A stretch of DNA of 32,000 bases from Xylanibacter ruminicola 23 (GTDB taxonomy: Bacteria > Bacteroidota > Bacteroidia > Bacteroidales > Bacteroidaceae): positions 3,090,001 through 3,122,000 of the forward strand of contig NC_014033.1 of assembly GCF_000025925.1 (NCBI RefSeq), written 5' to 3'. Shown here piece after piece: positions 4,979 to 30,986 of the stretch (position 1 is its first letter; the number at the start of each line of letters is the position of its first letter). The notes below the pieces were generated by a model, which searched no databases, was not told the origin of the DNA, and saw nothing but the letters and a program-made list of their open reading frames with translations. The position numbers and the translations under genes were made by a program.

Positions 4979-6271
4979 TCATTTAAGATGTAATCTTAAT
5001 CCAAACTGGATAGATGGTGCCAGCGGATGCTCTTTGTAATAATGCTGCAAAGAGGTTCCGTCGTTAAAGTAATAACCCAGCGCAGGCTCAAGGTAAAGTC
5101 CGAACTGGCGTGTGATATTATATTCGGCACCAGCAGCGGCATTAAGTGAGAACTGCCAGGGGCGCTGGTCGATATCGCCATCGGATACTTGAGCGTCGAT
5201 ACATTTCTCGAGCAAGGCGGTACCCGCTAGATAAACATTAAGATTACCGGTGCTCCATATGTTCCATGATGCGCCTACGGGAATACCTAAGTATCTGAGT
5301 TTCTGGATGTAATTATTACTGTTGGTAATAGGTGTGATAAACTCCGACTCAAGATAGGTATAGCTGATACCACTATGCAAAGCGATGCGATTGCTAAGTT
5401 GATACTGTAACGAGAGTCCGAATCTAACAGGCAACTTGTGTTTCGAAACTACATCGGGCAGGGTGTACATATTGGTAAACGAAGAAGTTTCGCCGAACTT
5501 GATGTAGTCGGTAACAATAGTACCGCCGTTTTTGTCTAAATCAACATCGCTGTTAACTGCGTAATTCGCATCGCTATTCAGGAATTGTCCACCCATAGTG
5601 TTTCCTAAATTATTACTAGCCATCAACAAACCGTTCGAACCGTTCAGTCCGATGGTCCATTTATCTGTATCGATTGATTTTGAGCGGGTTTCGCTTGGAT
5701 TGATAACATCAGGCAGATAGGTTTGTTTCTTTTCCTGCGACGCAATAATTTGGGTGTCTTCTGATACCTGCTGATGATTGTCAGTAGCATCTGGAGCGTT
5801 TTTGTTTGTAGCCTCTTGTAAGCTATTGTCTGTCACCTCCTGCAGATTTTCGCCTGTAGGTAGTTGCTGTTCGTAAAACTGGGGTTGGGGCTGACACTTC
5901 GTTCCCATAGTTTTTTCTACCTTATGATCATTTGTCGCTTGAGCCAGAAGTATTAGTTCTTCTGCCGGCATTGCTGGCTTGTCTGCTTCGGCTTTAGGTG
6001 CCATCACTTTCTGGCTGTTAGCCGTTAACTGGGGCTCTTTGGTATCAAACTGATAAACGGTAAAGCATCCAACAATCGCCAGGATGGCAGCTGCAGCCAC
6101 CCAATACCAGCGGCGCATAGAAACAGTCTTTGCTGGGGCTGAAACAGGGGCAGACTCAGACTCAGTCTGGAGTTGCATCTCGTTACTGATGCTCTCCCAG
6201 AGTCCGGCTGGTGGAGTCATCTGGTGCCCCTCCAGTTTTTGTTTCATTTGTTTCGTCCAATCCTCTTTCAT
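4979..6271 (-). CDS. anti-sigma-like membrane protein with a C-terminal outer-membrane beta-barrel (porin-like) domain
   Basis: The ATG at 6271 (MKEDWTKQM) forms an ATGA overlap with the sigma-factor stop (6268-6270). The protein has a short N-terminal cytoplasmic segment, one TM helix (WYWVAAAAILAIVGCFTVY), a ~150-aa Q/E/T/N-rich linker, and alternating-hydrophobic beta strands ending in FGLRLHLK. Confidence 0.6.
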   Translation of the reverse strand: MKEDWTKQMKQKLEGHQMTPPAGLWESISNEMQLQTESESAPVSAPAKTVSMRRWYWVAAAAILAIVGCFTVYQFDTKEPQLTANSQKVMAPKAEADKPAMPAEELILLAQATNDHKVEKTMGTKCQPQPQFYEQQLPTGENLQEVTDNSLQEATNKNAPDATDNHQQVSEDTQIIASQEKKQTYLPDVINPSETRSKSIDTDKWTIGLNGSNGLLMASNNLGNTMGGQFLNSDANYAVNSDVDLDKNGGTIVTDYIKFGETSSFTNMYTLPDVVSKHKLPVRFGLSLQYQLSNRIALHSGISYTYLESEFITPITNSNNYIQKLRYLGIPVGASWNIWSTGNLNVYLAGTALLEKCIDAQVSDGDIDQRPWQFSLNAAAGAEYNITRQFGLYLEPALGYYFNDGTSLQHYYKEHPLAPSIQFGLRLHLK

Positions 6272-6816
6272 CCCTTTTCGATTATTAATTCCTTTATTCT
6301 TCGCGCCAGCCATTGTTTGGCGTAATAGAGCTGAGAAGCTGATGTGCCTTCCTTAATGCCAAGTAGCTCGGCTATTTGCCGATGCGAGTAGTCTTCAAAT
6401 ACATACAGATTCAGTACCGTTCTGTATCCATCAGGCAGTTCGCTTATCAGCTGGTGCAGCTGGTCGGCCGAAATCTGTTCTGTTGCAGGGGTGTCGTCTG
6501 CTATATCCGCTTGCTTCTGTTTTATCTCGTCCTGCTCTACAAACAGCAGTTTCTTCTTGGTCCTTAGGAACATCAGCGCCTCGTTTGCTACAACCCTCAT
6601 CAGCCAGCCTTTGAACGCCTCTTCGCCGCGATACTCAAGCGATGGGATGGCGGTGAATATCTTTATAAAACTGTTCTGCAGCACATCCTTCGCATCGTCG
6701 CTATTGGGTATATAGCGGTAGCAGACCGATGATAGCTCACCAATATACATCTGGTAGAGCTCGCTCATCGCCCGTTGGTCTTTATTCCGTATTCGCTCAA
6801 CGAGTTGATTGACCAT
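6268..6816 (-). CDS. ECF-type RNA polymerase sigma-70 factor
   Basis: 182 aa. Region 2 (DAKDVLQNSFIKIF) and region 4 HTH (LPDGYRTVLNLYVFEDYSHRQIAELLGIKEGTSASQLYYAKQWL) are present. Confidence 0.85.
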   Translation of the reverse strand: MVNQLVERIRNKDQRAMSELYQMYIGELSSVCYRYIPNSDDAKDVLQNSFIKIFTAIPSLEYRGEEAFKGWLMRVVANEALMFLRTKKKLLFVEQDEIKQKQADIADDTPATEQISADQLHQLISELPDGYRTVLNLYVFEDYSHRQIAELLGIKEGTSASQLYYAKQWLARRIKELIIEKG

Positions 6817-6845
6817 TTTCTGCTTACGTTCTATGATTAAGAATT

Positions 6846-6853
6846 CAAAAGTA
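6846..6853 (-). promoter_or_regulatory. candidate -7 box (TACTTTTG) for the sigma/anti-sigma operon
   Basis: Exact TAnnTTTG on the minus strand, about 30 nt upstream of the ATG at 6816. Confidence 0.4.
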
Positions 6854-6959
6854 CTGAAATCTTGTATGAGAACAGAAAGTTTTTAGTTTCTTTAACATTT
6901 TTCTATACAAGAATCGCTTAAATACTGCATTATTATAGCGAAATGAACCTAAAATACGT

Positions 6960-8303
6960 ATGAATATGAAGAAAAAGTTTTTTTTATTATCAGCCATTAT
7001 GCTGAGTGGAGTCATCCTTTCGAGCCTCCTTTCATGCAGCTCGTCAGAAGAGATTGAGCAGCTCGAACCCAAGCAAGTTGTAAACATGCTGGGTGAATCA
7101 AAGCCTATACAGCTAACTCAGGAGCAGAGTGTGTTTGTAAACGACAACAACCAGTTTACGCTGAACTTCCTGAAAGCAGTAAACAAGGCTGAACAAAACG
7201 GCCAGAGCTTTATCTATTCGCCATTGAGCATTACCTATGTATTAGGCATGGTGAACGATGCTGCCACAGGACAGACGGAACAGGAGCTGGAACAAGTCAT
7301 GGGTTTCCATCAGGGTGGTATCAAGGCTGTCAACGACTACTGCAAGAAATTGATTGACGGTCTGCCAAAAGTGGATGACAAGGTAACGCTGAACATCGCT
7401 AATGCCCTGTTTGTCAATAAGAACAGGGGCACGCTGCAGCAGCAGTATCAGCAGGACATGAAGCAGTATTATGATGCTCAGGCAGAGAACCTGGACTTCA
7501 AGTTGCCATCAACGCTCAAGACCATCAACGACTGGGCCAGCGATCATACCAATGGCATGATTCCAACCATTCTCGATAAGATAGATGAGAAAGTGGTGAC
7601 CTATCTGCTGAATGCCATCTATTTTAAAGCCGACTGGGCATCTAAGTTCGAGGCAAAGAATACCGAGGAAGAGAAGTTTACTGCGACAAATGGTACCATC
7701 AAGCTGCCATTGATGCACCAGAATGTGCTTATCCAATATCTGAAGAATGAGGATTATAGTGCCATCGAGATACCTTATGGTAATGGTTTATGGAAGATGA
7801 CGGTAATGCTGCCTGAGGAAGGAAAGACCACCGACGACATAATCGAGCGTATAGGACAACTCGGTTTTTTAGAGGGAAATGGATTCTGCGGCACCATGGG
7901 CGACACATACATGGCACACGAAGTTGACCTGAAACTGCCACGCTTTGAAACCAGTTCGGATACAGATAAACTGACATTGAAAGGCGGTCTTGTCGCCCTA
8001 CTGCAACAGCTGGGGATTAATCTGGTATTTAATCAATCCTTATCTGAGGTGCCCAATATGTGCGAAAAAGAGAATATGTATATTAGTATGATGCGCCAGA
8101 AGGCAAAGATTAAGGTGAATGAGGAAGGTTCTGAGGCGGCTGCCGTAACCATTGGTGGGGCAAACTGTACGGCTTTCACCCCTAATCCTCAACCTGTGGA
8201 ATATCCTAAGGCCATATTCCATGCTAATCGCCCCTTTGTGTATACCATCAGCGAGGCCTCATCGGGTGTTATCGTGTTTGTAGGAAAATTTTCTAGGGAG
8301 TAG
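6960..8303 (+). CDS. serpin family protease inhibitor, predicted lipoprotein
   Basis: 447 aa with a lipobox (SSLLSC). Serpin core motifs are present (NAIYFKADWASKFE, LPRFE), as are the inhibitory-type hinge EEGSEAAAVT and the C-terminal NRPFVY. Confidence 0.85.
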   Translation: MNMKKKFFLLSAIMLSGVILSSLLSCSSSEEIEQLEPKQVVNMLGESKPIQLTQEQSVFVNDNNQFTLNFLKAVNKAEQNGQSFIYSPLSITYVLGMVNDAATGQTEQELEQVMGFHQGGIKAVNDYCKKLIDGLPKVDDKVTLNIANALFVNKNRGTLQQQYQQDMKQYYDAQAENLDFKLPSTLKTINDWASDHTNGMIPTILDKIDEKVVTYLLNAIYFKADWASKFEAKNTEEEKFTATNGTIKLPLMHQNVLIQYLKNEDYSAIEIPYGNGLWKMTVMLPEEGKTTDDIIERIGQLGFLEGNGFCGTMGDTYMAHEVDLKLPRFETSSDTDKLTLKGGLVALLQQLGINLVFNQSLSEVPNMCEKENMYISMMRQKAKIKVNEEGSEAAAVTIGGANCTAFTPNPQPVEYPKAIFHANRPFVYTISEASSGVIVFVGKFSRE

Positions 8304-16151: not shown

Positions 16152-16160
16152 AAAATATAA

Positions 16161-16330
16161 GAAACTGGGAAACTGAGAAACTGAGAATCAGGTTGGTTTG
16201 AGAACGGAGAAAGTATTATGTATAAATATAATAATTAATTTAATAATCGTATCATAGATACCATTGTCAACTTTCCCCGTTTAAAACTAAAACCACCCCG
16301 ATTCCCATTTTCCCAGTTTCTCATTTTCTC
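16161..16330. repeat. 170-bp imperfect palindrome: inverted arms of 53 and 60 bp around a 57-bp, ~16% GC core
   Basis: The left arm (16161-16213) begins with GAAACTGG GAAACTGA GAAACTGA GAATC. The right arm (16271-16330) ends with GATTC CCATTTTC CCAGTTTC TCATTTTC. By hand alignment the arms are about 80% complementary with one 5-nt indel. AAAAAAT occurs just outside both arms (16150-16156 and 16334-16340). Confidence 0.7.
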
Positions 16331-16361
16331 CTCAAAAAATCTCAGTAGTAAGCTTTCAATG

Positions 16362-16402
16362 AGATATCCGTAATGTATCTACCAGATATCCGTAACTTAT
16401 CT
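16362..16402. promoter_or_regulatory. two tandem 19-bp dyad-symmetric sites AGATATCCGTAAYNTATCT, 22 bp apart
   Basis: The sites are 16362-16380 (AGATATCCGTAATGTATCT) and 16384-16402 (AGATATCCGTAACTTATCT). Each is AGATA-N9-TATCT. A function as a binding site is inferred only. Confidence 0.45.
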
Positions 16403-16516
16403 CATAGATTAATTACGTTTTCCCAACGTGGGCGCTCGGCTTTGCCGCTTCGCTTGTCGAAGAATATTTGTTCCCCAACTAGGGAATTTTTGCGCCCTCA
16501 CGTGGCAGCAAAATTT

Positions 16517-17549: not shown

Positions 17550-17584
17550 AATTATCAATTATCAATTATCAATTTTCAATTTTC
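17550..17584. repeat. heptamer tandem repeat (AATTATC)x3 (AATTTTC)x2
   Basis: Read directly: five contiguous 7-bp units in the divergent promoter region between the permease and the OM barrel gene. Confidence 0.9.
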
Positions 17585-17588
17585 TGCG

Positions 17589-17696
17589 CCATTCGTCACA
17601 AATTTACCGTTTATCACACCATTCGTCACAAAATGTCACAGAATATCCCTAAAATTTGGAGTGTGTTGCAACTATATCTACTTTTGCAACGTCAAA
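17589..17696 (+). promoter_or_regulatory. promoter module A: two CCATTCGTCACAAA boxes, a -33 TTTG, a -7 TACTTTTG and GCAACGTCAAA
   Basis: Boxes lie at 17589-17602 and 17619-17632, TTTG at 17655-17658 and TAnnTTTG at 17679-17686. Block order and spacing are identical to modules B and C. Confidence 0.55.
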
Positions 17697-17735: not shown

Positions 17736-20111
17736 ATGAAAAAGTTAAGTTTTAGACTGATGGCCCTGATGGCCGCAATGATGATGACGCTGACAAGTTC
17801 CGCCAAGACACAAGACTGGGGCGGACGCGTGATAGATGAGAATGGCGAACCCATGCCGTATGTAAATGTAGTGCTGCTGTCGCTGCCCGACTCGGCTTTT
17901 GTGCAGGGTGCAATGACCAACGAGCAGGGTGTGTTTAAGATTGTAACCGATGTGAACGAGGGCTTGTTTAAGGTTACCAGCGTGGGCTATCAAACCTTAT
18001 ATATGAAGGCTGGTCAGGATCTTACCATCCAGATGAAAGAGGATAACCAACTGTTGAAGGAGGTGGTAGTAAAAGGACAGTTGCCTAAAACTCATGTCAA
18101 GGGCGATGCCATGCGTACAACTGTGGCAGGAACCATCCTTGAGAAGGCTGGAACCGTGAGCGATGCTTTGGCAAAGATTCCTTCGCTCGAGGCTGAGCGC
18201 GATGGTGCCGTAAAGGTGCTGGGTCGTGGCGATGCCGAGGTGTATATCAATGGCCGTAAGGTACAGGATATCTCCGAACTGTCGCGTTTGCGTTCCGATC
18301 AGGTGCTGCATGTAGATGTGGTTCAGAATCCAGGAGCCCGTTATGCTGCATCAACCAAGGCTGTGGTTCGCATTACGCTGAAGAAGGCGCAGGGCGAGGG
18401 TATCAGTTTCCGGGATAATGCGGGTGGCATGTATCAGTATGGTCACACGTTTACCAATAATCTGGATGTGAACTATCGTACTGGCGGACTGGATGTAACA
18501 GCATCGTTCTGGGCAGGTCGCTATGGTCATAGCAAGAGTCTGCAGGAGGATGATATGTACTATTTAGTACCAAATGGCCAGGGTAAAGATGCGGTTACCG
18601 GCTATACCAAGCAGGAAACCAAACAGATATGGAAAGGTCTCTCGCCTCAGATTCAGCTTAACTATATGTTCAACGAGAACCATGGCTTGGGTGCTTTCTA
18701 CAAGTACGACTATCACCCCAGTGGTAGCCTGACCAGCGATTTTAATACCGACGAGTATCAGAATGGCGCCTTTATGGAGCGTTCGGAGAGCAAAATATGT
18801 CAGGATGATAAGTTTAAGAAGCATATCTTTAATGCCTATTATAATGGAAAGTTAGGAAATTTGGGTATCGATCTGAATATCGACGGACTCTTCGACGATA
18901 CCGAAACCCCGGGCAATACCATCGAGTTAGCCACATCGCCTGCTGGCGAGAAAACGCAGCGCACTATCAATAGCAATACCAAGAGTGGTAACAACTTCTG
19001 GGCTTCGAAGCTTATCTTCAGCTATCCTTTGTTTAAGGGTAACCTCTCTATTGGTGGTGAGTATAGCTATAATCATCGCACCGATGCCTACTCGTTTGCT
19101 GCCTCTGAGGCTGTGCCTGTAACAGCTACCGATACAGAGATTAACGAGAAGTCGGAAGCCGCCTTTATCGAGTACGGACATCAGTTCGGAAAGCTGTTTG
19201 CTCAGGTTGGTTTGCGTTACGAGCACCTGAAGAACGACTATTATAACTATGGTAAGCGTATGGACGACGAGAGCCGCGACTATGGCGACTGGTTCCCCAC
19301 CGCTACCCTCTCAGCGCCTATCGGTAAGGTACAGCTGGCACTCTCATATCGTCGCGATATCAAGCGCCCGGCCTATAGCAGCTTAACAAGCTCTACCATC
19401 TATCTGAACCGATATGCCTATCAGAGTGGTAACCCATATCTCCGCCCCACTTACACTCACAGCTTAGAGCTGAACGTAAACTATAAGTGGATGGGAATGA
19501 GTATGAACTACTCGCGTATCAAGGATTTGGAGACGATGTCGTCAGAACCCTTCCCAGGTGCCGATGATCCACTGGTATGCCTGGTTCGTCCCATCAATAC
19601 CGAGGAGGACTTCAATCAGCTGAGCTTTAATCCCTATGCCAGTCCGGTTATTGGCTGTTGGCATCCTACCTGGTACGTCTATGTGCAGTTCCAGGATTAC
19701 AAGGCGCCTCGTGCCGATGGTTCTACCATTACCCTCAATCACCCATATTGTCAGGTAGGTTGGAATAATACCATTACGTTGCCAAAGGGCTGGCGTATTA
19801 ATGCCGGATTGAGTTATGTGCCTAAGGGCGATGCTAGTAACTTCCGCATTCACAAGCAGCAGTTCCGTTCTAACCTCGGTGTTCAGCGCGATTTCAACCT
19901 GCGCCGTTTGGGTACACTTACTGCCGATGTACGTTGCAACGATATCTTTAATACCGATAAGACTAACGCCACCCTGTTTGGCCAGCGTGAGTTAACTGTT
20001 CGTAATCCAGCCCGTCGTACCTTCATGCTCGACCTGACTTGGAAGTTTAACGAGGCTAACAGTAAGTATCGTGGAAAAGGTGCTGGCGAAAAGCAGAAAG
20101 CACGTATGTAA
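17736..20111 (+). CDS. outer-membrane beta-barrel family protein (TonB-receptor-like; CarboxypepD_reg-like N-domain plus plug-like domain plus barrel)
   Basis: 791 aa with a signal peptide, a GRVIDENGEPMPYVNVVL..GVFKIV regulatory-like domain, a plug-like segment (VLGRGDAEVYINGRKV) and a long barrel. It is a paralogue of 25335-27482. Confidence 0.7.
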   Translation: MKKLSFRLMALMAAMMMTLTSSAKTQDWGGRVIDENGEPMPYVNVVLLSLPDSAFVQGAMTNEQGVFKIVTDVNEGLFKVTSVGYQTLYMKAGQDLTIQMKEDNQLLKEVVVKGQLPKTHVKGDAMRTTVAGTILEKAGTVSDALAKIPSLEAERDGAVKVLGRGDAEVYINGRKVQDISELSRLRSDQVLHVDVVQNPGARYAASTKAVVRITLKKAQGEGISFRDNAGGMYQYGHTFTNNLDVNYRTGGLDVTASFWAGRYGHSKSLQEDDMYYLVPNGQGKDAVTGYTKQETKQIWKGLSPQIQLNYMFNENHGLGAFYKYDYHPSGSLTSDFNTDEYQNGAFMERSESKICQDDKFKKHIFNAYYNGKLGNLGIDLNIDGLFDDTETPGNTIELATSPAGEKTQRTINSNTKSGNNFWASKLIFSYPLFKGNLSIGGEYSYNHRTDAYSFAASEAVPVTATDTEINEKSEAAFIEYGHQFGKLFAQVGLRYEHLKNDYYNYGKRMDDESRDYGDWFPTATLSAPIGKVQLALSYRRDIKRPAYSSLTSSTIYLNRYAYQSGNPYLRPTYTHSLELNVNYKWMGMSMNYSRIKDLETMSSEPFPGADDPLVCLVRPINTEEDFNQLSFNPYASPVIGCWHPTWYVYVQFQDYKAPRADGSTITLNHPYCQVGWNNTITLPKGWRINAGLSYVPKGDASNFRIHKQQFRSNLGVQRDFNLRRLGTLTADVRCNDIFNTDKTNATLFGQRELTVRNPARRTFMLDLTWKFNEANSKYRGKGAGEKQKARM

Positions 20112-20160
20112 TTTGTAATTAATAATTTTGCGTTTGTAAGTTGAACATATTTAAGTTTGT

Positions 20161-22512
20161 ATGAAAAGATTGTTTTTAGGTGCAGCTATTGCCATGCTGC
20201 TCATCCCTGCAGTGGCAGGGGCACAGACCAATCAGGCTGTCCAGACTGTTCGTGGTCAGGTTTGTGATGTTGCGTCGGGCGAGCCCATGATTGGTGTAAC
20301 GGTCACAGTAGAGAACGGTAGTACTATGGCTACCGTCTCTGATGTGGACGGAAATTTCGAAATCAAGAATGTGCCCGTGGGGCGCCATTCCGTCAGAGCC
20401 AGCTATATTGGTTACGAGTCTGTACTGCTTAAGGAGCAGATGGTTACCTCGGGTAAGGAGTTGGTACTCAATCTGCGTATGCGTGAGAGTATCTCCGAAC
20501 TGGGCGAGGTGGTTATCAAACCACGTGTAAACAAGCAACAACCATTGAACGAGATGGCTCAGGTGGGTGCCCGTATGTTCAGTGTCGAGGAGGCTAGTCG
20601 CTATGCTGGCGGCATGGCCGACCCTGCCCGCACGGCTTCGATGTTTGCGGGTGTGGCTACAGGTGGCGCTACCAACGGTATCTCTATTCATGGCAACTCA
20701 CCTCAGATGTTGCAATGGCGAGTTGAAGGCGTTGAGGTCGCCAATCCCAACCACTTTGCCGAGATTACCGAGGCTGGTGGTGGTGTGTTTACCTCGCTCA
20801 ACGGAACCGTGCTGGCTAATAGTGATTTCCTCACTGGCGCCATGCCAGCTGAGTATGGTAATGCCCTTTCTGGTGCCTTCGATATGAAGATGCGCGTGGG
20901 TAACAATACCAAGTACGAGCATGCCATCCAGGTGGGTACACTTGGTGTCGATTTCGCTTCCGAGGGTCCGTTGGCAAAGGGTTCTAAGGCCTCTTATCTG
21001 GTAAACTATCGCTATAGTTTCCTCGAGATAGCCAAGAAGCTGCATGCCATCAATATGGAGAACGAGACACTCGACTATCAGGACCTGAGCTTTAAACTCA
21101 ACATGCCTACCAAGAAGGCAGGTACCTTTGCCGTGTGGTTCACCGGACTGATCGATCGCTACGAGAATAAGGTTCCCGATGTGTCGGAGTGGGAAACGCT
21201 TTGGGACATGAACGACTCGTGGTCGCGCCAGCGCAACTGCGCTTTGGGCGTAAACCATACCTACCGCTTTAAGTCGGGTGGTACGCTGCACTCAAGTGTG
21301 GCTTTTACAGGCGCCTATCGCAAACTGGGTGTTAACGATTACGACGCAGATATGAACCAGATGCCACAAATGGCAGGACGTAGCTCACAGTGGAACGTCA
21401 TCATCAGCACCCAGCACCAACACAAGTTTTCATCAAGATATACCATGCAGAATGGCTTTGAGCACCAGCACTTAGATTTCCACACTTGGATGGATTACAT
21501 CCACTATACGGGTGGTCCGCTCTATCGTGTGTACGATTCTGAGGGCAATACAGGCCTTACCCGCTTTTATACCAACCATAAGGTGGCGCTCAGTCGTAAG
21601 CTTTCGGCTGTGGCTGGTGTCAACGTCATGTGGTTTAACCTCAACAACCAGTGGCTGGTTGAGCCTCGTATCAGCATGCAGTACAAAACTTCGGCATCAA
21701 GCACGCTCTCGCTGGCCTATGCCATGAACAGCCGCAAGGAAACTACCGATACCTATTTTGTACTGATGGACGGTAAGAATCCTAATAAGGATTTAGGATT
21801 GACACGTTCGCATCACATCTCAGCCTCGTTCGCTCAGCGTTTAGGCGACAACGCCATGCTGAAGATTGAGCCCTACTGGCAGTGGTTGTTCGATGTGCCT
21901 GTAGAAATGGGTAGTACCTATTCTATCCTGAATCATCGCAAGTTCTTTCAGGATCGTGCTTTGGTTAACGAGGGTGCAGGTCGTAACTATGGTATCGACT
22001 TCACCTTGGAACGTTATCTCAAGGACGGGTTCTATGGCATGATAACTGCCACTCTGTTTAAGTCGGAGTACCGCGATGCACAGGGCCAGTGGCACCACTC
22101 ACGCCATGATCGCCGCTACATCACCAATATTCTGGGTGGTAAGGAGTGGATGGTAGGCAAGGCCAAGAAAAACGTGTTTGGTATCAATGGTAGATTAACC
22201 ATGATGGGTGGCGATCGCTACACCCCAATTCCCGATGGTATCACTTTCGACGAGGTGATGATGCGCCCTGATAAGTCGATTCCTGAAGACGAGGGTTTGG
22301 ATCCCTTTACCAAGCAAAAGGGTATGAACGTAGGTTATGCTTTCTCGATTAAGTACACCATCAACAAGAAGCATACTTCGCACCACTTCATCCTCGAATA
22401 TCTGCAGATGAAGACGTTCCAGGGTCAGACGTTCGACCTGCACACCCACGAGACTGTGGATAAGTTCACCTCGCTCACATTCCCCAATATTGCCTATCGA
22501 GTAGAGTTCTGA
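20161..22512 (+). CDS. TonB-dependent receptor with a carboxypeptidase-regulatory-like N-domain
   Basis: 783 aa with a signal peptide, a RGQVCDVASGEPMIGVTVTV..GNFEIKNVPVG domain, a plug segment (DPARTASMFAGV, ISIHGNSPQMLQWRVEGVEV) and a C-terminal aromatic end (AYRVEF). Confidence 0.75.
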   Translation: MKRLFLGAAIAMLLIPAVAGAQTNQAVQTVRGQVCDVASGEPMIGVTVTVENGSTMATVSDVDGNFEIKNVPVGRHSVRASYIGYESVLLKEQMVTSGKELVLNLRMRESISELGEVVIKPRVNKQQPLNEMAQVGARMFSVEEASRYAGGMADPARTASMFAGVATGGATNGISIHGNSPQMLQWRVEGVEVANPNHFAEITEAGGGVFTSLNGTVLANSDFLTGAMPAEYGNALSGAFDMKMRVGNNTKYEHAIQVGTLGVDFASEGPLAKGSKASYLVNYRYSFLEIAKKLHAINMENETLDYQDLSFKLNMPTKKAGTFAVWFTGLIDRYENKVPDVSEWETLWDMNDSWSRQRNCALGVNHTYRFKSGGTLHSSVAFTGAYRKLGVNDYDADMNQMPQMAGRSSQWNVIISTQHQHKFSSRYTMQNGFEHQHLDFHTWMDYIHYTGGPLYRVYDSEGNTGLTRFYTNHKVALSRKLSAVAGVNVMWFNLNNQWLVEPRISMQYKTSASSTLSLAYAMNSRKETTDTYFVLMDGKNPNKDLGLTRSHHISASFAQRLGDNAMLKIEPYWQWLFDVPVEMGSTYSILNHRKFFQDRALVNEGAGRNYGIDFTLERYLKDGFYGMITATLFKSEYRDAQGQWHHSRHDRRYITNILGGKEWMVGKAKKNVFGINGRLTMMGGDRYTPIPDGITFDEVMMRPDKSIPEDEGLDPFTKQKGMNVGYAFSIKYTINKKHTSHHFILEYLQMKTFQGQTFDLHTHETVDKFTSLTFPNIAYRVEF

Positions 22513-22527
22513 TGATGGAAAAAGGGC

Positions 22528-22605
22528 CCATTCGTCACATTTTTGTACAGAATATCCCTAATATTTGGCGCGTGATGTAGTTTTTTATATCTTTGCAGCG
22601 TCAAA
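22528..22605 (+). promoter_or_regulatory. promoter module B: CCATTCGTCACA box, -33 TTTG, -7 TATCTTTG and GCAGCGTCAAA
   Basis: The box lies at 22528-22539, TTTG at 22564-22567 and TAnnTTTG at 22588-22595. The module starts 16 bp after the receptor stop. Confidence 0.55.
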
Positions 22606-22641: not shown

Positions 22642-23202
22642 ATGAAACCAAGAACGATTATCGGATTAGTTTTAGTTGTAGGCGGTTTGGTTAAGCTTGC
22701 CACCATCTGGGGACTTATTCATTGGGAGTGGTTTGAAACAATGTCTGAAGGGCCATGGTGCATGTATTTCAGCATCTTTGTTATTATGTGGGTAGGTGCG
22801 CATCTGATTGTAGATAGTTATCGTCGCGACCCAGACCAGTGGTTGCAGCGCCCTCTGCCCATCGGCGAGGATGGCAAGCGCATCTGCTGTTGCGTGCATT
22901 ATGGTGGCGACGAGTATATTTTCCGTGGCGAGCCGTTCCATGGTGCCCGTCTCGATGCCTTCTGTGGTGGTCTCCGTATGGACTTGCGCGAGGCTGTGAT
23001 TACCGAGGACGAGGAGATTGATATCCACACCTTCTGTGGTGGTGTCGAGCTCTTTGTGCCTGCTCACGTCAATGTTTTGGTAAAGAGTCGCAGCTTTATC
23101 GGAGGTGTAGGCAACTCAACCGTGCATGTGCCTGATAAGGATGCCCCTTGCCTGCACATTGTAGCCAGCAATTTCTTTGGTGGCGTTGATGTTAAGAATT
23201 AA
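22642..23202 (+). CDS. LiaF-like (DUF2154-type) membrane protein
   Basis: 186 aa with two N-terminal TM helices. The beta-rich C-terminal part has repeated F-x-G-G motifs (FCGGLRMDL, FCGGVELFVP, FIGGVGN, FFGGVDV), as in the LiaF C-terminal domain. Confidence 0.5.
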   Translation: MKPRTIIGLVLVVGGLVKLATIWGLIHWEWFETMSEGPWCMYFSIFVIMWVGAHLIVDSYRRDPDQWLQRPLPIGEDGKRICCCVHYGGDEYIFRGEPFHGARLDAFCGGLRMDLREAVITEDEEIDIHTFCGGVELFVPAHVNVLVKSRSFIGGVGNSTVHVPDKDAPCLHIVASNFFGGVDVKN

Positions 23203-23248
23203 GAAAACCAAGTTTTGTTAATATTAAGTTAGAATTAATTTTCTAATA

Positions 23249-23283
23249 AAAGCAACGTCCGTCGCGATGACGCATGTTGCTTT
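23249..23283 (+). terminator. stem-loop, probable intrinsic terminator after the LiaF-like gene
   Basis: AAAGCAACGT-C-CGTC / GACG-C-ATGTTGCTTT forms about 14 bp with one mismatch and a 5-nt loop. An A-tract and a short T-tract flank the GC part. Confidence 0.5.
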
Positions 23284-23328
23284 CATGGTAAGAACAAATA
23301 TCGTTTAACTAATTATAGATTACGAAGT

Positions 23329-25341
23329 ATGAAAAAAATGTTTTTTGCTGTAGCTATGGCCCTTGTTAGTTTGGCCAGCTCGGCACAGGATCTGAAAGCA
23401 AACATGGACCCGAGTGTTAAACCTGGCGACGACTTCTGGCTGTATGCCGTTGGTGGTTGGCTCAAGGCCAATCCGCTGGATAAGCAGCATGCCGAGAACG
23501 GTGCGTTTACCGACTTGGAGGAGCTGAACAACGATCGTATTAAGGAACTGATTATGAAGTACGCCGAGAAGCAAATGCCTCAGGGAACCGACGGGCAGAA
23601 GATAGGCGCTCTCTATCGCTTATATATGGATAGCGTAAGCCGCAATAAGATGGGCTACGAGCCAATTAAGCCCTACCTCAAGCAGGTACGCGAAGTAAAG
23701 ACTCGCGAGGAGTTGCTTAAGCTGATGTGCGATTTCGACGCTAAGGGATTCAATACCGCTCCATTCGGTATCGGTCTGTCACTCAATCCATTCAACTCTT
23801 CCGAGTATATGATTGGTGGCGGTCATGGCGGTGCCTCGCTGCCACAGGAGTACTATGCTAACCCTAATGAGCAACAGAAGAAGACAGTTGAAGCCAAGAA
23901 GGCCCTGTTTAAGGATTTCTTCAAGATGGTAGGCTATAGCGAAAAAGAGGCTCAGAAAAAGATGGAGGCCGAGTGGGCCATCGAGCATGCCATCGGCATA
24001 AAGACCCTGAATCAGGTTGAAAGTCGTAACCCCATGGCTACTATCCACATCATGCCTTGGCAGCAGTTGTTGAACGATTTCAAGGGTATCGACTGGGAAG
24101 GTTATCGCGATGCCTTGGGCATGCCAAAGGATATCGATCAGGTAAACATCAGCCAGTTGGAGCCTTTGCACGAGGTTGAGAAGATTATGGCCAACACCAG
24201 TCTCGACGATCTCAAGTCGTATGTCGAGCTTCAGATTATTCGCTCTTACAGCGGTTTCCTGAGCGATGCTTTCGAGGATCGTGCTTTCGAGGCTCAAAAG
24301 GCCATCAGTGGTGTACAGGAGCAGCAGCCCCGTTGGAAGCGTGCTGTGGCTACCATCAGTGGTAGTCTGGGCGAAACTATTGGTAAACTGTATGTTCAGG
24401 AGTACTTTCCCGAGAGCAGTAAGCAGCGTGTGGTACGATTGGTAAAGGATTTGCAGCAGGCCTTCGAGGATCGTTTAAACGAGAATACCTGGATGAGCGA
24501 TAGCACCAAGGCCAAGGCACTTGAGAAGCTGCATGCCATGCATATTAATGTAGGCTATCCCGATAAGTGGGAGGATATGGAGAAGTTTGTGGATATCCGT
24601 GAGAACGAGAATCTGGTCGAGAACTTCATCCGTATCACTCAGGAGGCCCGTGCTGCCATGTTCCGTAAGTACTGGCACCAGCCGGTTGATAAAACCCGCA
24701 TGGTTTGCACACCTCAGACGGTTAACGCTTTTTATCATCCCCTCTTCAACAGCATCAACTTCCCTGCAGCCATCCTGCAACCACCATTCTTTGATGTAAA
24801 TGCCGATTACGCCAGCAACTACGGTGCCATTGGTGTAGTAATGGGACACGAGATGACCCACGGATTTGACGATCAGGGTTGTCAGTTTGATAAGGATGGT
24901 AACCTGAAGAACTGGTGGACAGCTGACGATAAGACCAATTACGACCAGCGTACCAAGGTGATTGCCGACTGGTTTAGCGAGCAGGAGGCTGTGCCTGGTT
25001 TGAAGGTTAACGGACAGAAGACGCTTGGCGAGAACGTGAGCGATAACGGTGGTTTGAAGATTGCTTATCGTGCTTACGAGAACCGCATGAAGCAGGAGCC
25101 ACTGAGCAATATCGAGGGCTTTACCCCTGCTCAGCGTTTCTATCTGGCCTATGCCCGTGTTTGGGCTTGCAACAGCACCCCTGAGTACACGGCCATGCTG
25201 GTTAATAGCGATGTGCACTCACCTGCCCGTATCCGTGTTATGGCTGCTCTGCCTATGATCGATACCTGGTACGATGCCTTCGGTATCAAGCAGGGCGACA
25301 AGATGTTTATCCCTAAGGAGAAACGTGCATTAGTATGGTAA
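23329..25341 (+). CDS. M13 family zinc metallopeptidase (neprilysin/PepO-like), secreted
   Basis: 670 aa with a signal peptide (LASSAQ) and the M13 triad of motifs VNAFYHP, HEMTHGFD and GENVSDNGG. Confidence 0.9.
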   Translation: MKKMFFAVAMALVSLASSAQDLKANMDPSVKPGDDFWLYAVGGWLKANPLDKQHAENGAFTDLEELNNDRIKELIMKYAEKQMPQGTDGQKIGALYRLYMDSVSRNKMGYEPIKPYLKQVREVKTREELLKLMCDFDAKGFNTAPFGIGLSLNPFNSSEYMIGGGHGGASLPQEYYANPNEQQKKTVEAKKALFKDFFKMVGYSEKEAQKKMEAEWAIEHAIGIKTLNQVESRNPMATIHIMPWQQLLNDFKGIDWEGYRDALGMPKDIDQVNISQLEPLHEVEKIMANTSLDDLKSYVELQIIRSYSGFLSDAFEDRAFEAQKAISGVQEQQPRWKRAVATISGSLGETIGKLYVQEYFPESSKQRVVRLVKDLQQAFEDRLNENTWMSDSTKAKALEKLHAMHINVGYPDKWEDMEKFVDIRENENLVENFIRITQEARAAMFRKYWHQPVDKTRMVCTPQTVNAFYHPLFNSINFPAAILQPPFFDVNADYASNYGAIGVVMGHEMTHGFDDQGCQFDKDGNLKNWWTADDKTNYDQRTKVIADWFSEQEAVPGLKVNGQKTLGENVSDNGGLKIAYRAYENRMKQEPLSNIEGFTPAQRFYLAYARVWACNSTPEYTAMLVNSDVHSPARIRVMAALPMIDTWYDAFGIKQGDKMFIPKEKRALVW

Positions 25342-27482
25342 AGAAATATGTTGCGGCAACTGCCCTGGCTCTTGTATGTACAACAAGCTGGGCGCAGGAG
25401 CCTCAGGACTCGATAGAATCTGTAGACAAGTATTTAAATCTGAAGGAGGTCGTCATTAAAGGCGGCCTCCCTCACACTCGCCTCAAGGGTAACGCTATGG
25501 TTACCCGTGTGGATGGTACGGCGCTGGCATCAGCAGGTACACTGGGCGACTTGCTGGTAAAAGTGCCAGGTATGACTGGTACCGACGAGGCACCTGAGGT
25601 TTTAGGTAAGGGTACACCTCTTATATATATAAACGGTCGCAAGATGCGCGACGACAGCGAACTGAAGCGCCTACGCAGCGAGGACATTCGCGATGTAGAG
25701 GTGATTAACAACCCAGGTGCCCAGTACGATGCGCAGATACGTGCCGTGGTGCGTATCAGAACCAAGAAGCTGAAGGGCGAGGGTCTGGGACTGAATGCGA
25801 CACTCTCGAACGAACGCGACCTGCGTTACGATTTCGACCGTCCACAGGTAAAGCTGGGGGCCAACTACCGCAAGGATGGGGTAGATGTGTTCGGACAGGT
25901 ATATTTCTACCATCAGGACTATCGCCAATACAGTACGATAGAGGATAAGACCATGACTGACGTGAAGACATTTTATCAGCATGGCCCTTACACCATGACG
26001 TGGAAGTACAACCAGCTGAACTATAGCGCTGGTGTGAACTGGCAGTTGAACGAGAACCACTCGATGGGTGCGCGAATAGACCTGACACACCGCCCCAAAA
26101 GCGGTACCAACCAGGTGATTTACGATGAGGATGTGATAGAGAATGATGTGAAGATAGACCATCTGTACTCGCACCAGACCAGCAAAGAAAGCAAACCTCT
26201 GGGTATACTCACCAATACCTATTACAATGGTAAGGTGGGTAAGTTAGGTATCGACTTTAACTTCGACTTTATGAAGGGCGGCACCGATACCAATCGCGAG
26301 AATGTGGAGCTGAGCCAGATACAGAACGACTATGTGCTCAGTAAGTCGGGTACCAACAGCCATCTGTATGCTGCCAAGCTGGTGCTGTCGTACCCTATCT
26401 GGAAGGGTTCGTTGGATGCAGGAACCGAGATGAGTTTTGTGAAACGTAATAACACCTACTGGATTGACAAGGCTACCATTGCCAATACCGATGCCGACAT
26501 TAAGGAGAATAACATTGCGGCCTTTGCCGAGTATGGTTGCGACTTTGGTAAATGGGGACAGGCCAGTGCCGGTTTGCGCTACGAGCATACGCTGTTGGAT
26601 TACGACGATGCCAGTAACAACGACTATCTGCACCGTTCGATGGACGAGTGGTTCCCCACAGCATCGTATGCAGTAACGTTAGGCAAGATTCAGGCGGGTC
26701 TCTCATACAGTTTGAAGACCGAGCGCCCCAGCTTTTTTGCCATGAACGATGCCGTAACCTACATCAGTCGCTACACCCTGCAGGCTGGAAACTCGCAGTT
26801 GAAGAACGAACGTATCCGCGACCTGACGCTGAATCTGGCCTGGAAGTGGATTAACCTCTCGGCCTCGTACGAGCACACCAATAACGCCATTATCCAGTGG
26901 ACGGAAATCAATACCGCCCAGAAGGATGCCACACTTGTAAAGCATCGTAATCTGGATAAGCCCATCAAGACGCTGAGCGCCTATCTGTCGCTCACACCAC
27001 ATGTGGGCATCTGGTCGCTCAATGCTACGTTGGGTGTTGAGAAGCAGGATTTGTATCTGGATGTAGAGGGGCCGCACAACCACCAGTATCGTGTGTATTG
27101 CAACAAGCCCACTTACACCGTAAACGCCTTTAATACGTTTGCACTCAAACATGGCTGGCAGTTTGATGCCAACGTGATGTTCCATTCAAATGGTAACTCG
27201 TATATTTTCTACAACGACACCTACAGTCTGCGTTTGGGATTGATTGTACAGAAGAGTTTCCTGAAGGACCGCTCGCTCATTGCCCGTGTGGGTGTGCTCG
27301 ACTGCTTGCAGCGCCATCATGTGAACGAGGTGTGCGATTTGGGTTACAACTGGTTCAAACAAACCAACCGTTACTCAACCCATAAGTTGGTAACAACGCT
27401 CATCTATCGCTTTAATGCCACCCGCAGTAAGTACAAGGGTACAGGTGCTGGTAGGGACGTACAGGCCCGTATGGGATCATAA
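25335..27482 (+). CDS. outer-membrane beta-barrel family protein, paralogue of 17736-20111 lacking the N-terminal regulatory-like domain
   Basis: 715 aa. The plug-like region aligns by eye with the paralogue (KEVVIKGGLP..IYINGRKMRDDSELKRLRSEDI..NNPGAQYDA). Both share the C-terminal tail SKYKGTGAGRDVQARM. The ATG overlaps the M13 stop by 7 nt. Confidence 0.7.
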   Translation: MVKKYVAATALALVCTTSWAQEPQDSIESVDKYLNLKEVVIKGGLPHTRLKGNAMVTRVDGTALASAGTLGDLLVKVPGMTGTDEAPEVLGKGTPLIYINGRKMRDDSELKRLRSEDIRDVEVINNPGAQYDAQIRAVVRIRTKKLKGEGLGLNATLSNERDLRYDFDRPQVKLGANYRKDGVDVFGQVYFYHQDYRQYSTIEDKTMTDVKTFYQHGPYTMTWKYNQLNYSAGVNWQLNENHSMGARIDLTHRPKSGTNQVIYDEDVIENDVKIDHLYSHQTSKESKPLGILTNTYYNGKVGKLGIDFNFDFMKGGTDTNRENVELSQIQNDYVLSKSGTNSHLYAAKLVLSYPIWKGSLDAGTEMSFVKRNNTYWIDKATIANTDADIKENNIAAFAEYGCDFGKWGQASAGLRYEHTLLDYDDASNNDYLHRSMDEWFPTASYAVTLGKIQAGLSYSLKTERPSFFAMNDAVTYISRYTLQAGNSQLKNERIRDLTLNLAWKWINLSASYEHTNNAIIQWTEINTAQKDATLVKHRNLDKPIKTLSAYLSLTPHVGIWSLNATLGVEKQDLYLDVEGPHNHQYRVYCNKPTYTVNAFNTFALKHGWQFDANVMFHSNGNSYIFYNDTYSLRLGLIVQKSFLKDRSLIARVGVLDCLQRHHVNEVCDLGYNWFKQTNRYSTHKLVTTLIYRFNATRSKYKGTGAGRDVQARMGS

Positions 27483-29081
27483 TAGGTCCTTGATGGCAGC
27501 CTTGATTTGTGCCATGTTACTGCGCGAAACAGGTATAGTATCATGACAATTCTTCATTACAAGCTGGGTGGTGCCAGTGTGCGAGATAATCTGCTCAACC
27601 TGTTGGAGATTGATTATAAAGGCACGATGGCAGCGCACCATCATAGGATAGGCGCTTAGTTGTTCCTCAATCTGTTTTAAGGTAGCGCGTAGCATATCGT
27701 TTTTAATTTTCCCATCAAACAGTTGGTAAACTTTTACATAGTTGCCAACTGCTTCTATATATACCAGGTTGGCAATGTCGAGCGATAACGTATCGCTGGT
27801 CGATCCCGTTAGCGTGATATGTGTAGGCGCAGGTTGCTCGGCTGTGGCAACGGGTGTTTCCTTACGCCCTTTTTGCAGGCTCTTTAACTGCTCGTTCAGC
27901 AGTTTCAGCTCCTCTTCCTGCTTAGCCAGCAGTTTTTTACGCTTGCCTGCCAATACCGACAGTCCGAATATAACGCTTATCAATGCTAAGGTGAGTGCCA
28001 GAAAGAAGATGAGTTGGCGCTGGCGCGAAACGGTTAGCATCAGCTCATGGTCGCGCAGATTATGCATCGACCACTCCTTGGCTTCGGCCACAGCTTCGCT
28101 CTTTTCGCGTTTATCGCGTTTATTGTTGGCATACTCGGCTATTTCGGTCATATCATATCGCCCTGTAGTGGCATAGTTCAGTACCATGCGGTGGGCTATC
28201 ATGCAGAATCGGGTGGCATCGGTAGCTTTTTCTTCATCTACCATATCCATATACTGCCGGGCCTTCTGTTTGTCGCCCTTCAGCAGCCAGGCATGCGACA
28301 GCGAGAAGAGTGCGCCAATCTTGTTGTCTTCAAGAATCGTGGAATGCTGATAGTGATCTAATATATACTCTTGCAGCTGGATGCCTTTATCCAGCTGGCC
28401 CATGGCTACAAGCATATCAGCATAGTTACGCATCACATCATTCCAGATATAGATGGAGTCGGCGGCTGTATCCCTATAAGCTACGATACGTTCCATCGTG
28501 GCGATGGCTGCATCGTAGTTACCATGATAGAAATATTCGATAGCCAGACTGTTAAGCAACTTGGCCTGATTCTTATCGCCGCCATCCAGTTTCACCACCT
28601 CTTCGGTATAGCGTTTCAGTCCATCCAGATTACCTTCGAGCGATTCCATGCGGGCCAGGCTTCGGAGTTTTGAGATGGTGCCTTCGCGATCGTTAGCGCG
28701 TTTACTCTCTTCTACCGACAGGTGCATCATGTCCTTGGCCTTGGCAAAGCTGTCGCGCCACCAGTAGTACGACGATGCCAAAGCATGGGCCTTGCACAGC
28801 ATGGCGCTATCCTTGTCCTGATAATATTCGGCAGCATAAAGCACCAACGAGTCTTCCGACAACGCTTGGTAGGTGCCAATGTGTGCCTGGGCCATAGCCA
28901 TCCAGTAACGAGCCTTCCATTCGCCCTTCAGTCGGCTGGCATCTTCTACCTTATTTAGTACGCACAAGGCGCTGTCGGCGTGTTCTCCAACAAGTGTCTC
29001 TGCTTCGATAATAAACTGTTTGTCTGTTTTGCTGCATGCAGCCAGCAGTAACGTAATGAGTAGCCAATTAATTCGTTTCAT
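27477..29081 (-). CDS. membrane-anchored TPR-LytTR transcriptional regulator (no receiver domain)
   Basis: 534 aa with a lipobox (LLLAAC), ~340 aa of TPR-like helical repeats, a TM helix (LIFFLALTLALISVIFGLSVLAG) and a coiled coil. The C-terminal LytTR domain reads LVYIEAVGNYVKVY..VRCHRAFIINL. Confidence 0.75.
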   Translation of the reverse strand: MKRINWLLITLLLAACSKTDKQFIIEAETLVGEHADSALCVLNKVEDASRLKGEWKARYWMAMAQAHIGTYQALSEDSLVLYAAEYYQDKDSAMLCKAHALASSYYWWRDSFAKAKDMMHLSVEESKRANDREGTISKLRSLARMESLEGNLDGLKRYTEEVVKLDGGDKNQAKLLNSLAIEYFYHGNYDAAIATMERIVAYRDTAADSIYIWNDVMRNYADMLVAMGQLDKGIQLQEYILDHYQHSTILEDNKIGALFSLSHAWLLKGDKQKARQYMDMVDEEKATDATRFCMIAHRMVLNYATTGRYDMTEIAEYANNKRDKREKSEAVAEAKEWSMHNLRDHELMLTVSRQRQLIFFLALTLALISVIFGLSVLAGKRKKLLAKQEEELKLLNEQLKSLQKGRKETPVATAEQPAPTHITLTGSTSDTLSLDIANLVYIEAVGNYVKVYQLFDGKIKNDMLRATLKQIEEQLSAYPMMVRCHRAFIINLQQVEQIISHTGTTQLVMKNCHDTIPVSRSNMAQIKAAIKDLL

Positions 29082-29119
29082 GCCGCAAAAATAGTGTAAT
29101 TCTGCGATTTGACCAAGCG

Positions 29120-29195
29120 ATTCATCACAAAAGTACGCAGATTATCCCAAAATTTTGCTTATTCTTGCAACTATGCTTATCTTTGCAACGTCAAA
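29120..29195 (+). promoter_or_regulatory. promoter module C: degenerate box ATTCATCACA, -33 TTTG, -7 TATCTTTG and GCAACGTCAAA
   Basis: The box lies at 29120-29129, TTTG at 29154-29157 and TAnnTTTG at 29178-29185. Spacing matches modules A and B. It sits in the 132-bp divergent region shared with the LytTR gene. Confidence 0.5.
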
Positions 29196-30428: not shown

Positions 30429-30437
30429 ATAGTTACA

Positions 30438-30959: not shown

Positions 30960-30986
30960 AATAGATTTTTGAGTACAAAAGAGAAT

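Follow-up and report, generated by a model that had tools for sequence, protein, structure and literature searches.

Locus and Promoter Module

The stretch of DNA analyzed here (the window) comprises 32,000 nucleotides (nt) of Xylanibacter ruminicola 23 (NCBI RefSeq assembly GCF_000025925.1, contig NC_014033.1, positions 3,090,001 to 3,122,000 of the forward strand). It contains three operons preceded by promoters of one design, which we term P1, P2, and P3, and its sole LytTR gene (27477-29081), which encodes a protein with a predicted TPR domain (TPR-LytTR; Table 1). The subject of this analysis is the module that the three promoters have in common. Module positions are counted from the A of ATTC as offset 0, which corresponds to window positions 17621 (P1), 22530 (P2), and 29120 (P3).

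The layout is the same in all three copies: the box ATTCRTCACA (0 to +9) is followed after 8 nt by CAGAWTATCCC (+18 to +28), and then by TTTG (+34), TAnnTTTG (+58), and CARCGTCAAA (+66 to +75). An earlier note on this DNA, made without database searches, had described tandem boxes at P1 and the same ordered blocks at two further sites, and this description is borne out both by the coordinates, with exact CCATTCGTCACAAA copies at 17589-17602 and 17619-17632 (separation 30 bp) and the ordered blocks repeated at 22528-22605 and 29118/29120-29195, and by a 72-column matrix derived solely from loci outside the window, which scores P1 at 73.7, P3 at 72.6, and P2 at 65.5 bits. The runner-up position in the window reaches −11.7 and ten shuffled windows peak at −5.7, so that the matrix scan finds exactly three modules. 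The distance from ATTC to TTTG is 34 bp in each (17621 to 17655, 22530 to 22564, and 29120 to 29154), the second element follows 24 bp after the first (at 17679, 22588, and 29178), and all three sites read TTTG-N20-TA(CT/TC)TTTG. The spacing is thus identical in the three copies, as had been claimed; the 34 bp given for it is right if counted from ATTC but not from the CC of the 14-mer, which gives 36 bp, and the search pattern proposed in the note was itself correct.

The individual blocks differ in how far they stand out from the rest of the window. The 14-mer alone, with up to three mismatches, is found four times against 3.2 expected, which is not significant, while CAGAWTATCCC has three exact copies and eight with at most one mismatch against 1.0 expected, a number that none of 100 shuffles reaches, and TTTGCARCGTCAAA has three exact copies against 0.5 expected. 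TTTG and TAnnTTTG agree with the consensus of the primary sigma factor σABfr, in which they lie near −33 and −7, respectively (PMC7366714), and their assignment as −33/−7 elements in the earlier note therefore stands; both are strongly conserved, at fixed positions, in the 129 instances described below. An RNA element in the conserved leader was considered and rejected, as a search of the whole window against Rfam at gathering thresholds gave no match.

Table 1. Coordinates of the promoter modules, the regulator gene, and the operons in the window.
Feature	Positions	Strand	Remarks
P1 distal extra box, core ATTCGTCACA at 17591-17600	17587-17603	+	Exact box copy, 30 bp upstream of proximal box
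P1 putative half-site DR1 caccATTCGTCACAaaa	17617-17633	+	Promoter-distal; conserved flanks (−1 C, +11 A) outside search pattern
P1 putative half-site DR2 caCAGAATATCCCtaaa	17637-17653	+	Promoter-proximal, abuts −33
P1 −33 element TTTG	17655-17658	+	1.0-1.6 bits per position (n = 129 instances)
P1 −7 element TACTTTTG (TAnnTTTG)	17679-17686	+	20-nt spacer from −33
P1 CAACGTCAAA across predicted start-site region	17687-17696	+	Start predicted near 17690-17695
P1 operon	17736-22512	+	OMP_b-brl_3/CarboxypepD_reg outer-membrane barrel 17736-20111; CarboxypepD_reg protein 20161-22512 (Pfam)
P2 module	22526-22595	+	DR1 22526-22542; DR2 22546-22562; TTTG 22564-22567; −7 TATCTTTG 22588-22595
P2 CAGCGTCAAA	22596-22605	+	Directly after −7
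P2 operon	22642-27482	+	LiaF-like/DUF2154 22642-23202; M13 peptidase 23329-25341; OMP_b-brl_3 barrel 25335-27482 (Pfam)
TPR-LytTR regulator	27477-29081	−	534 aa; divergent from P3; Pfam LytTR E = 1.2e-17
Candidate regulator promoter	29086-29117	−	CTTG 29117-29114; 20 nt; TATTTTTG 29093-29086; 4 nt (CGGC); ATG at 29081
P3 module	29116-29185	+	DR1 ATTCATCACA 29116-29132; DR2 CAGATTATCCC 29136-29152; TTTG 29154-29157; −7 TATCTTTG 29178-29185
P3 CAACGTCAAA	29186-29195	+	Directly after −7
P3 operon	29214-31556	+	Transglutaminase-like 29214-30428; 173-aa protein 30438-30959; FMN reductase 30969-31556 (Pfam)

Architecture of the Putative Operator

The earlier note had also remarked that the upstream box and the GAATATCCC block are not part of the sigma consensus. 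Both are indeed conserved beyond that consensus, but the GAATATCCC block is probably not a separate element: its sequence suggests that the box and this block are two diverged half-sites of one operator in a 20-bp register, the distal one (DR1) reading tgcC-ATTCRTCACA-aAw and the proximal one (DR2) TG-CAGAWTATCCCA-nAw. When shifted by 20 bp the two align as tgcCATTCgTCACAaAw and TGCAGAaTATCCCAnAw and are equal at 9 of 17 consensus positions, and the matching flanks, TG at −4/−3 and +16/17 and A.Aw at +9 to +12 and +29 to +32, lie outside the pattern that was searched. The 9-nt cores are 11 nt apart, and in all instances the DR2 core ends at +25, 8 nt before the TTTG at +34. Known LytTR sites consist of two repeats of 9-11 nt with spacers of 11-13 nt (PMC4847170) and LRS repeats are positioned 4-11 bp upstream of −35 (PMC6193735), and the layout of the module fits these published sites in repeat length, spacer, and distance to −33.

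A self-similarity scan gives a score of 4.8 at a shift of 20 and less than 3.5 at most others, but the 10-bp shift, at 5.9, is higher, because a phased CA.A recurs every helical turn. Since the half-sites are only weakly alike and the 10-bp shift beats the 20-bp shift, a direct repeat is a reasonable and likely reading of DR1 and DR2 rather than a proven one. Two other arrangements were rejected, namely a direct repeat at a shift of 21 or 22 bp, which scores 1.5 and 3.0, respectively, and thus below the value at 20 bp, and an inverted repeat formed by the box and the GAATATCCC block (ATTC...GAAT), in which 4-5 bases match.

Two boxes are found only at P1, as the earlier note had it, and this is true within the window; among relatives extra upstream boxes are common. 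They are present in about a third of 127 instances, with 22 located at −39 to −41, 13 at −20 to −22, and six at −30 to −32, and most of them thus keep to the 20-bp register. The distal box of P1 has no consensus second half-site and scores −1.2 with an operator-only matrix, and TTTATCACA at 17611-17619, 20 bp beyond it, may be a weak partner half-site. Further upstream, between this box and the start of the FecCD gene, is a heptamer array, (AATTATC)x4.6 at 17550-17581, and on the FecCD side there is a −7 box, TACTTTTG, on the minus strand at 17543-17536; the array may be part of the FecCD promoter, or a spacer or bend. Short repeats abound at 16152-16516, in the gap that separates a PD-(D/E)XK-like gene from the 3′ end of the FecCD permease gene. 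They include (AGAAACTG)x3.5 at 16160-16187, with an inverted counterpart near 16302-16330, and a 22-bp unit, AGATATCCGTAAnGTATCTAnC, repeated 2.2 times at 16362-16409; Rfam has no match to this gap.

Distribution of the Module and Its Association with LytTR Genes

One genome for each of 185,579 species was scanned for the exact pattern ATTSRTCACA-N8-CAGWWTATCCC, which has 21 specified bases and for which we calculate about four chance matches in the whole collection. At least 120 stretches carry it, and 118 of the 120 among the matches listed are from Prevotellaceae or Bacteroidales, mostly from rumen samples. Module counts per genome are lower bounds, and are at least four in RUG765 and at least three in X. 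ruminicola D31d. An alignment of 129 distinct instances reveals conserved positions that the pattern does not specify (−1 C, +11 A, +16/17 TG, +29 A, and +31 A), together with TTTG at +34-37 (1.0-1.6 bits per position) and TA at +58/59 and TTTGCA at +62-67 (up to 1.75 bits). As these non-pattern positions are conserved, the fixed geometry holds across the whole lineage. Within the start-region block only CA (+66/67) and AAA (+73-75) remain conserved, and hence the full CAACGTCAAA block is specific to close relatives. Start codons are mostly 85-120 nt past the box, as expected of a promoter.

The module is tightly linked to LytTR genes. Upstream sequence of 1.5 kb or more is available for 88 modules, and 41 of these have a divergent LytTR gene directly adjacent; we estimate the background chance of such adjacency at well under 1%. 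About half of the modules are away from any LytTR gene, which means that the regulon is wider than the three operons of the window. The small regulon of three operons proposed in the earlier note is therefore not upheld, as the module precedes more than 15 gene families in Prevotellaceae. The first gene behind it, assessed in 127 instances, is most often LiaF-like (35) or OMP_b-brl_3/CarboxypepD_reg (24), followed by GNAT with a zinc ribbon (9), GNAT (6), transglutaminase-like (5), ABC ATPase (5, in five genomes other than D31d), and M13 peptidase (2), and others encode PhzF-like, esterase, and α/β-hydrolase proteins and more. We speculate that this content points to an envelope or xenobiotic response.

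Within the window, the LiaF-like protein encoded first behind P2 matches PF09922 (E = 3.2e-8) and has two N-terminal membrane helices by hydropathy, and the 173-aa protein of the P3 operon matches no Pfam family. The genes of the P3 operon recur behind the module at three other loci (L028, L072, and L073), and proteins are 97-99% identical between the window and Xylanibacter ruminicola Ga6B6. Elsewhere in the window, an extracytoplasmic function (ECF) sigma gene (6268-6816, minus strand) overlaps a gene for a 444-aa OMP-barrel-like protein (4979-6313), with a serpin gene (6960-8303) divergent from both; this region (4979-8303) is unrelated to the module according to the matrix scan.

The TPR-LytTR Candidate Regulator and Its Putative Promoter

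The TPR-LytTR protein begins with a lipoprotein-type signal peptide (…LLLAAC), which is followed by a TPR-containing domain of ~340 aa, a membrane helix (354-381), a coiled-coil linker, and the LytTR domain (431-530). Pfam detects no Response_reg or receiver domain in this protein or in the four-membrane-helix (4TM) paralogue described below, and the only relative of the LytTR domain found by sequence among solved structures is 3d6w, which is without DNA. Orthologues of the regulator were found at 79, 78, 52, and 51% identity (loci L001-L004, retrieved with their flanks), each with two or three modules that are always ahead of neighboring genes. The association also holds when the search starts from the protein, with modules at all eight TPR-LytTR loci (the window, L001-L004, L028, L038, and L072), and seven of these eight, the most distant at 51% protein identity, keep a distance of exactly 39 bp between the start of the box and the regulator ATG on the opposite strand. 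In the orthologous intergenic regions, for which the earlier note had suggested footprinting, the blocks of the module are conserved and the spacers are not: across seven P3-type regions DR1 is 59% and DR2 71% invariant, as against 0% for the 3-nt internal spacer, 10% for the −33/−7 spacer, and 9% for the leader, which is a classical phylogenetic footprint.

The regulator gene appears to have a promoter of its own, the −33-like element of which overlaps the outer flank of the P3 DR1. The sequence CCAAG is unchanged in all seven TPR-type loci compared, where the regulator ATG is always 39 bp from the box. This candidate promoter, which abuts DR1 and is conserved in TPR-type loci, suggests that the regulator mRNA is leaderless or nearly so, and autoregulation through the P3 operator may well occur, since that operator abuts the putative divergent promoter of the regulator.

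The 4TM-LytTR Paralogues

A second family of LytTR proteins is associated with the same module. These 4TM-LytTR proteins (~295 aa) have four membrane helices, the same coiled-coil linker as the TPR type, and a LytTR domain that has 47 invariant columns in common with that of the TPR type. The 4TM type is the neighbor of the module in 38 of 43 divergent cases, with the typical gene order 4TM-LytTR ← → module - LiaF-like - OMP_b-brl_3, and X. ruminicola D31d encodes both types. In the reverse direction, four 4TM-LytTR loci were picked by protein similarity alone and one (L248) was left out, as its scaffold is interrupted by a gap ahead of the LytTR gene; all three assessable loci have modules, which score 66-71 bits and have box and DR2 variants that fall outside the exact pattern. 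The variant operators are at 3918 (minus strand) in L247, 2464 in L245, and 150 and 3643 in L246, the variant boxes are CCGTTCGTCACA, which contains the exact AlgR core, or ATACGTCACA, and the variant DR2 sequences are CCGTTTATCCC, CTGTTTATCCC, and TAGAATATCCC. Such variants can serve as a set of naturally occurring operator mutations. The distance from the 4TM-LytTR start codon to the box is variable, where the start-codon heuristic over-extends several of the open reading frames.

Some loci of these families have a gene order of their own. In X. ruminicola D31d (L036, 2238-6219) the 4TM-LytTR gene is tail-to-tail with genes for a MacB-type ABC ATPase and an FtsX-family permease and is 1.9 kb from a module driving an esterase. 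At L004 (9029-11620) the TPR-LytTR gene is directly preceded, on its own strand, by a 4TM-type LytTR gene, with which it may form an operon. At L002 (10174-12345) the LiaF-like and M13 peptidase genes are separated by an ECF sigma gene and a further small gene, and a LytTR gene encoding 223 aa is divergent from the LiaF-like gene.

Proposed Mechanism

We propose, as the most probable interpretation and with good if not full confidence, that P1-P3 are σABfr promoters, each with a bipartite operator for Prevotellaceae-specific, membrane-anchored LytTR one-component regulators that activate the downstream operons. In the TPR-LytTR protein, the TPR domain would be a periplasmic sensor, joined through the single membrane helix and the coiled coil to a LytTR domain in the cytoplasm, and the protein would probably act jointly with a 4TM-LytTR paralogue whose gene is at another place in the genome. 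In that paralogue, the four-helix bundle would sense the signal instead. The LytTR proteins would dimerize via the juxtamembrane coiled coil and bind as a dimer or oligomer, with DR1 and DR2 occupied on one face of the helix and RNA polymerase contacted or recruited at the −33 element. P1 would then control two outer-membrane proteins, P2 the LiaF-like membrane protein, the M13 peptidase, and an outer-membrane barrel, and P3 the transglutaminase-like protein, the 173-aa protein, and the FMN reductase. The LiaF-like protein (DUF2154/Toastrack) would be induced from P2 and then feed back on the regulator, and is probably its membrane partner or inhibitor, in analogy to the action of HdrM on HdrR. 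LytTR domains have been proposed to dock onto the cytoplasmic Toastrack domain (PMC11237479). We thus infer operator binding, activation rather than repression, the nature of the signal, and an inhibitory role for the LiaF-like protein from sequence and gene context.

Several observations weigh against this proposal. For about half of the modules, no LytTR gene is close by; the two half-sites are weakly alike, with 9 of 17 consensus positions equal, and the 10-bp shift gives the highest self-similarity; the extra box of P1 at −30 belongs to a minority class that is off the 20-bp register; the −33/−7 elements are already near consensus, which would suit a repressor or an activator-independent promoter as well; and X. 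ruminicola has at least two candidate regulators. Since there are at least two, the assignment of P1-P3 to the regulator of the window is not exclusive. Hence, the control by the LytTR protein encoded at 27477-29081 that the earlier note had put forward is retained in so far as the module is tightly linked to LytTR genes, but it is not attributable to that gene alone, as the 4TM paralogue uses the same module.

The strongest competing explanation, which we regard as unlikely, is that the 4TM-LytTR paralogue is the main or sole protein to occupy the operator and that the TPR-LytTR protein of the window is a target or modulating partner. It would account for the 4TM type adjoining the module in most of the divergent Prevotellaceae cases, for the module 1.9 kb from the 4TM paralogue encoded by D31d, and for the 4TM-type gene directly upstream of the TPR-type gene at L004. 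However, the LytTR domain of the TPR type retains the same 47 invariant columns, the distance between the TPR-type gene and the box is fixed at 39 bp in seven of seven loci, and at L001 and L003, where modules adjoin the TPR type, the 12-14 kb retrieved contain no 4TM gene.

Less likely again is that the same LytTR proteins are repressors or anti-activators, and that the near-consensus promoters are constitutively strong and are released on a signal. Repression has to be considered in view of −33 and −7 elements and a 20-nt spacer that are close to consensus, unlike those of the suboptimal promoters typically activated by AgrA (PMC4227749). Nevertheless, the sites are wholly upstream of −33 and do not overlap the −33/−7 elements or the start-site region, such a placement is the class I/II activator position of characterized LytTR regulators (PMC6193735), and the fixed phasing to −33 in 129 instances suggests contact with RNA polymerase.

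We consider it very improbable that the module is read by a non-LytTR factor or an ECF sigma factor (GCAAC...CGTC), with the LytTR genes merely members of the regulon. Although TGCAAC-N17-CGTC can be read in P1 and P3, the window has an ECF sigma gene (6268-6816), and L002 has another inside its LiaF-like/M13 cluster, GCAA (+47-50) and CGTC (+68-71) carry 0.2-0.5 bits in the 129 instances versus 1.0-1.75 for TTTG/TAnnTTTG, P2 is without GCAAC, the operator is like known LytTR sites in sequence and layout, and LytTR adjacency holds in both directions. An ECF-type promoter GCAAC-N17-CGTC was accordingly rejected, as its positions are not conserved in the 129 instances.

That the three copies represent generic promoter sequence, or what is left of a dispersed repeat or a mobile element, with no specific regulation, is largely refuted and in our view close to negligible. 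Although ~75 nt of similarity is common to three intergenic regions within 12 kb, this similarity is limited to blocks between which the spacers diverge, neither terminal repeats nor a transposase is present, and the copies, of which the window has only three, precede different first genes. The module, which has no Rfam match, is confined to a single lineage (118 of 120 among the matches listed) and linked to LytTR genes, so that the generic-promoter alternative raised in the earlier note is not borne out.

Comparison with Known LytTR Systems

The closest known relatives of the system proposed here, in which membrane-anchored LytTR proteins would activate the module, are the 'LRS-like' operons of the Bacteroides fragilis group, namely Btheta7330_RS19920/RS19915 of B. 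thetaiotaomicron and that of B. ovatus, which are known from the in silico predictions of Zou et al. (2018; PMC6193735). In both cases a membrane-embedded LytTR protein is found together with a DUF2154/LiaF-like membrane protein, and a repeat pair, a likely one in the window, lies just upstream of Bacteroidota −33/−7 elements. The Bacteroides locus was retrieved from gut metagenomes via the published repeat, and in comparison with it the LiaF-like proteins are 27-33% identical (E ~1e-9) and the LytTR domains ~33% (E ~1e-5). The domains are homologous, but they are distant and not orthologues of those in the window. The two systems differ in other ways as well. In Bacteroides the membrane protein and LytTR genes are in one operon (L126), whereas in the window they are divergent or separate, and the Bacteroides repeats (TCCGGYATTCA-11 bp-ACCGKAAATCA) have a 22-bp register and end 11 bp from −33, whereas the half-sites of the window are unlike each other, have a 20-bp register, and abut −33. 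The Bacteroides core promoter is TGTA-19-TATCTTTG behind 11-bp repeats (PMC6193735), its LytTR protein has a multi-helix bundle where the regulator of the window has a periplasmic TPR domain, and the module of the window, unlike the Bacteroides system, also serves many remote genes.

The LRS of Streptococcus mutans (HdrRM and BrsRM) likewise combine a LytTR regulator with a membrane protein, and HdrM carries DUF2154 (PMC6193735). They have repeats immediately upstream of −35 and positive feedback, and they form two paralogous systems with overlapping regulons (PMC6193735). In S. mutans a soluble regulator is sequestered by the membrane protein that is encoded downstream in the same operon, whereas the regulator of the window has its own membrane helix and signal peptide, and its LiaF-like gene is 4.3 kb away in a separate module-driven operon rather than co-transcribed. 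The S. mutans repeats are near-identical 9-mers with a 12-bp spacer in front of Firmicutes sigma-70 promoters.

AlgR and AgrA have the same DNA-binding fold, and the core of DR1, CCATTCGTC, is identical to the AlgR core CCGTTCGTC at 8 of 9 positions (PMC4787818); the earlier note had given this core correctly, with the box one base off, and the L247 box matches it exactly. AlgR and AgrA are, however, response regulators with a receiver domain, whereas the regulator of the window is a membrane one-component protein without one, and the likeness of DR1 to the AlgR core may be convergent or coincidental. The tethering of a DNA-binding domain to the inner membrane is a property in common with Caulobacter HigX, a transmembrane LytTR protein ('fused LRS'), and with BcrR and ToxR, and the architecture of the 4TM paralogue (four helices, linker, and LytTR domain) matches the description of HigX. 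HigX-type proteins have no periplasmic domain, in contrast to the large TPR domain outside the membrane in the protein of the window, and their targets and operator are unrelated.

Significance

Our literature searches found no paper on LytTR regulation in Prevotella. To our knowledge, the regulators and operators of Prevotella and Xylanibacter, which are dominant rumen bacteria, are almost uncharted, and membrane-anchored LytTR factors are barely characterized anywhere. A broader possibility, which we offer tentatively and consider less probable than not, is that one operator common to two membrane-tethered LytTR types (periplasmic-TPR and four-helix), together with a LiaF-like/Toastrack partner, constitutes a 'fused LRS' circuit of Bacteroidota, in which target promoters are pulled to the membrane and an envelope-stress or antimicrobial-defense regulon is switched on across most rumen Prevotellaceae. 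If such a circuit exists, its regulon would comprise outer-membrane barrels, the M13 peptidase, GNAT acetyltransferases, a MacB-type ABC transporter, and FMN reductases, and the unlike half-sites would reflect asymmetric or heteromeric binding rather than that of a homodimer to identical repeats.

The analysis extends the LytTR/LRS-like paradigm already proposed for Bacteroides, and it neither overturns a concept nor introduces a new principle. Its outcome is a precisely defined putative operator with a fixed −33/−7 geometry, together with two proteins that may be its regulators and one that may be their membrane partner. It also provides a first list of target gene families, drawn from more than 100 species, and a possible inducible promoter for Prevotella genetics.

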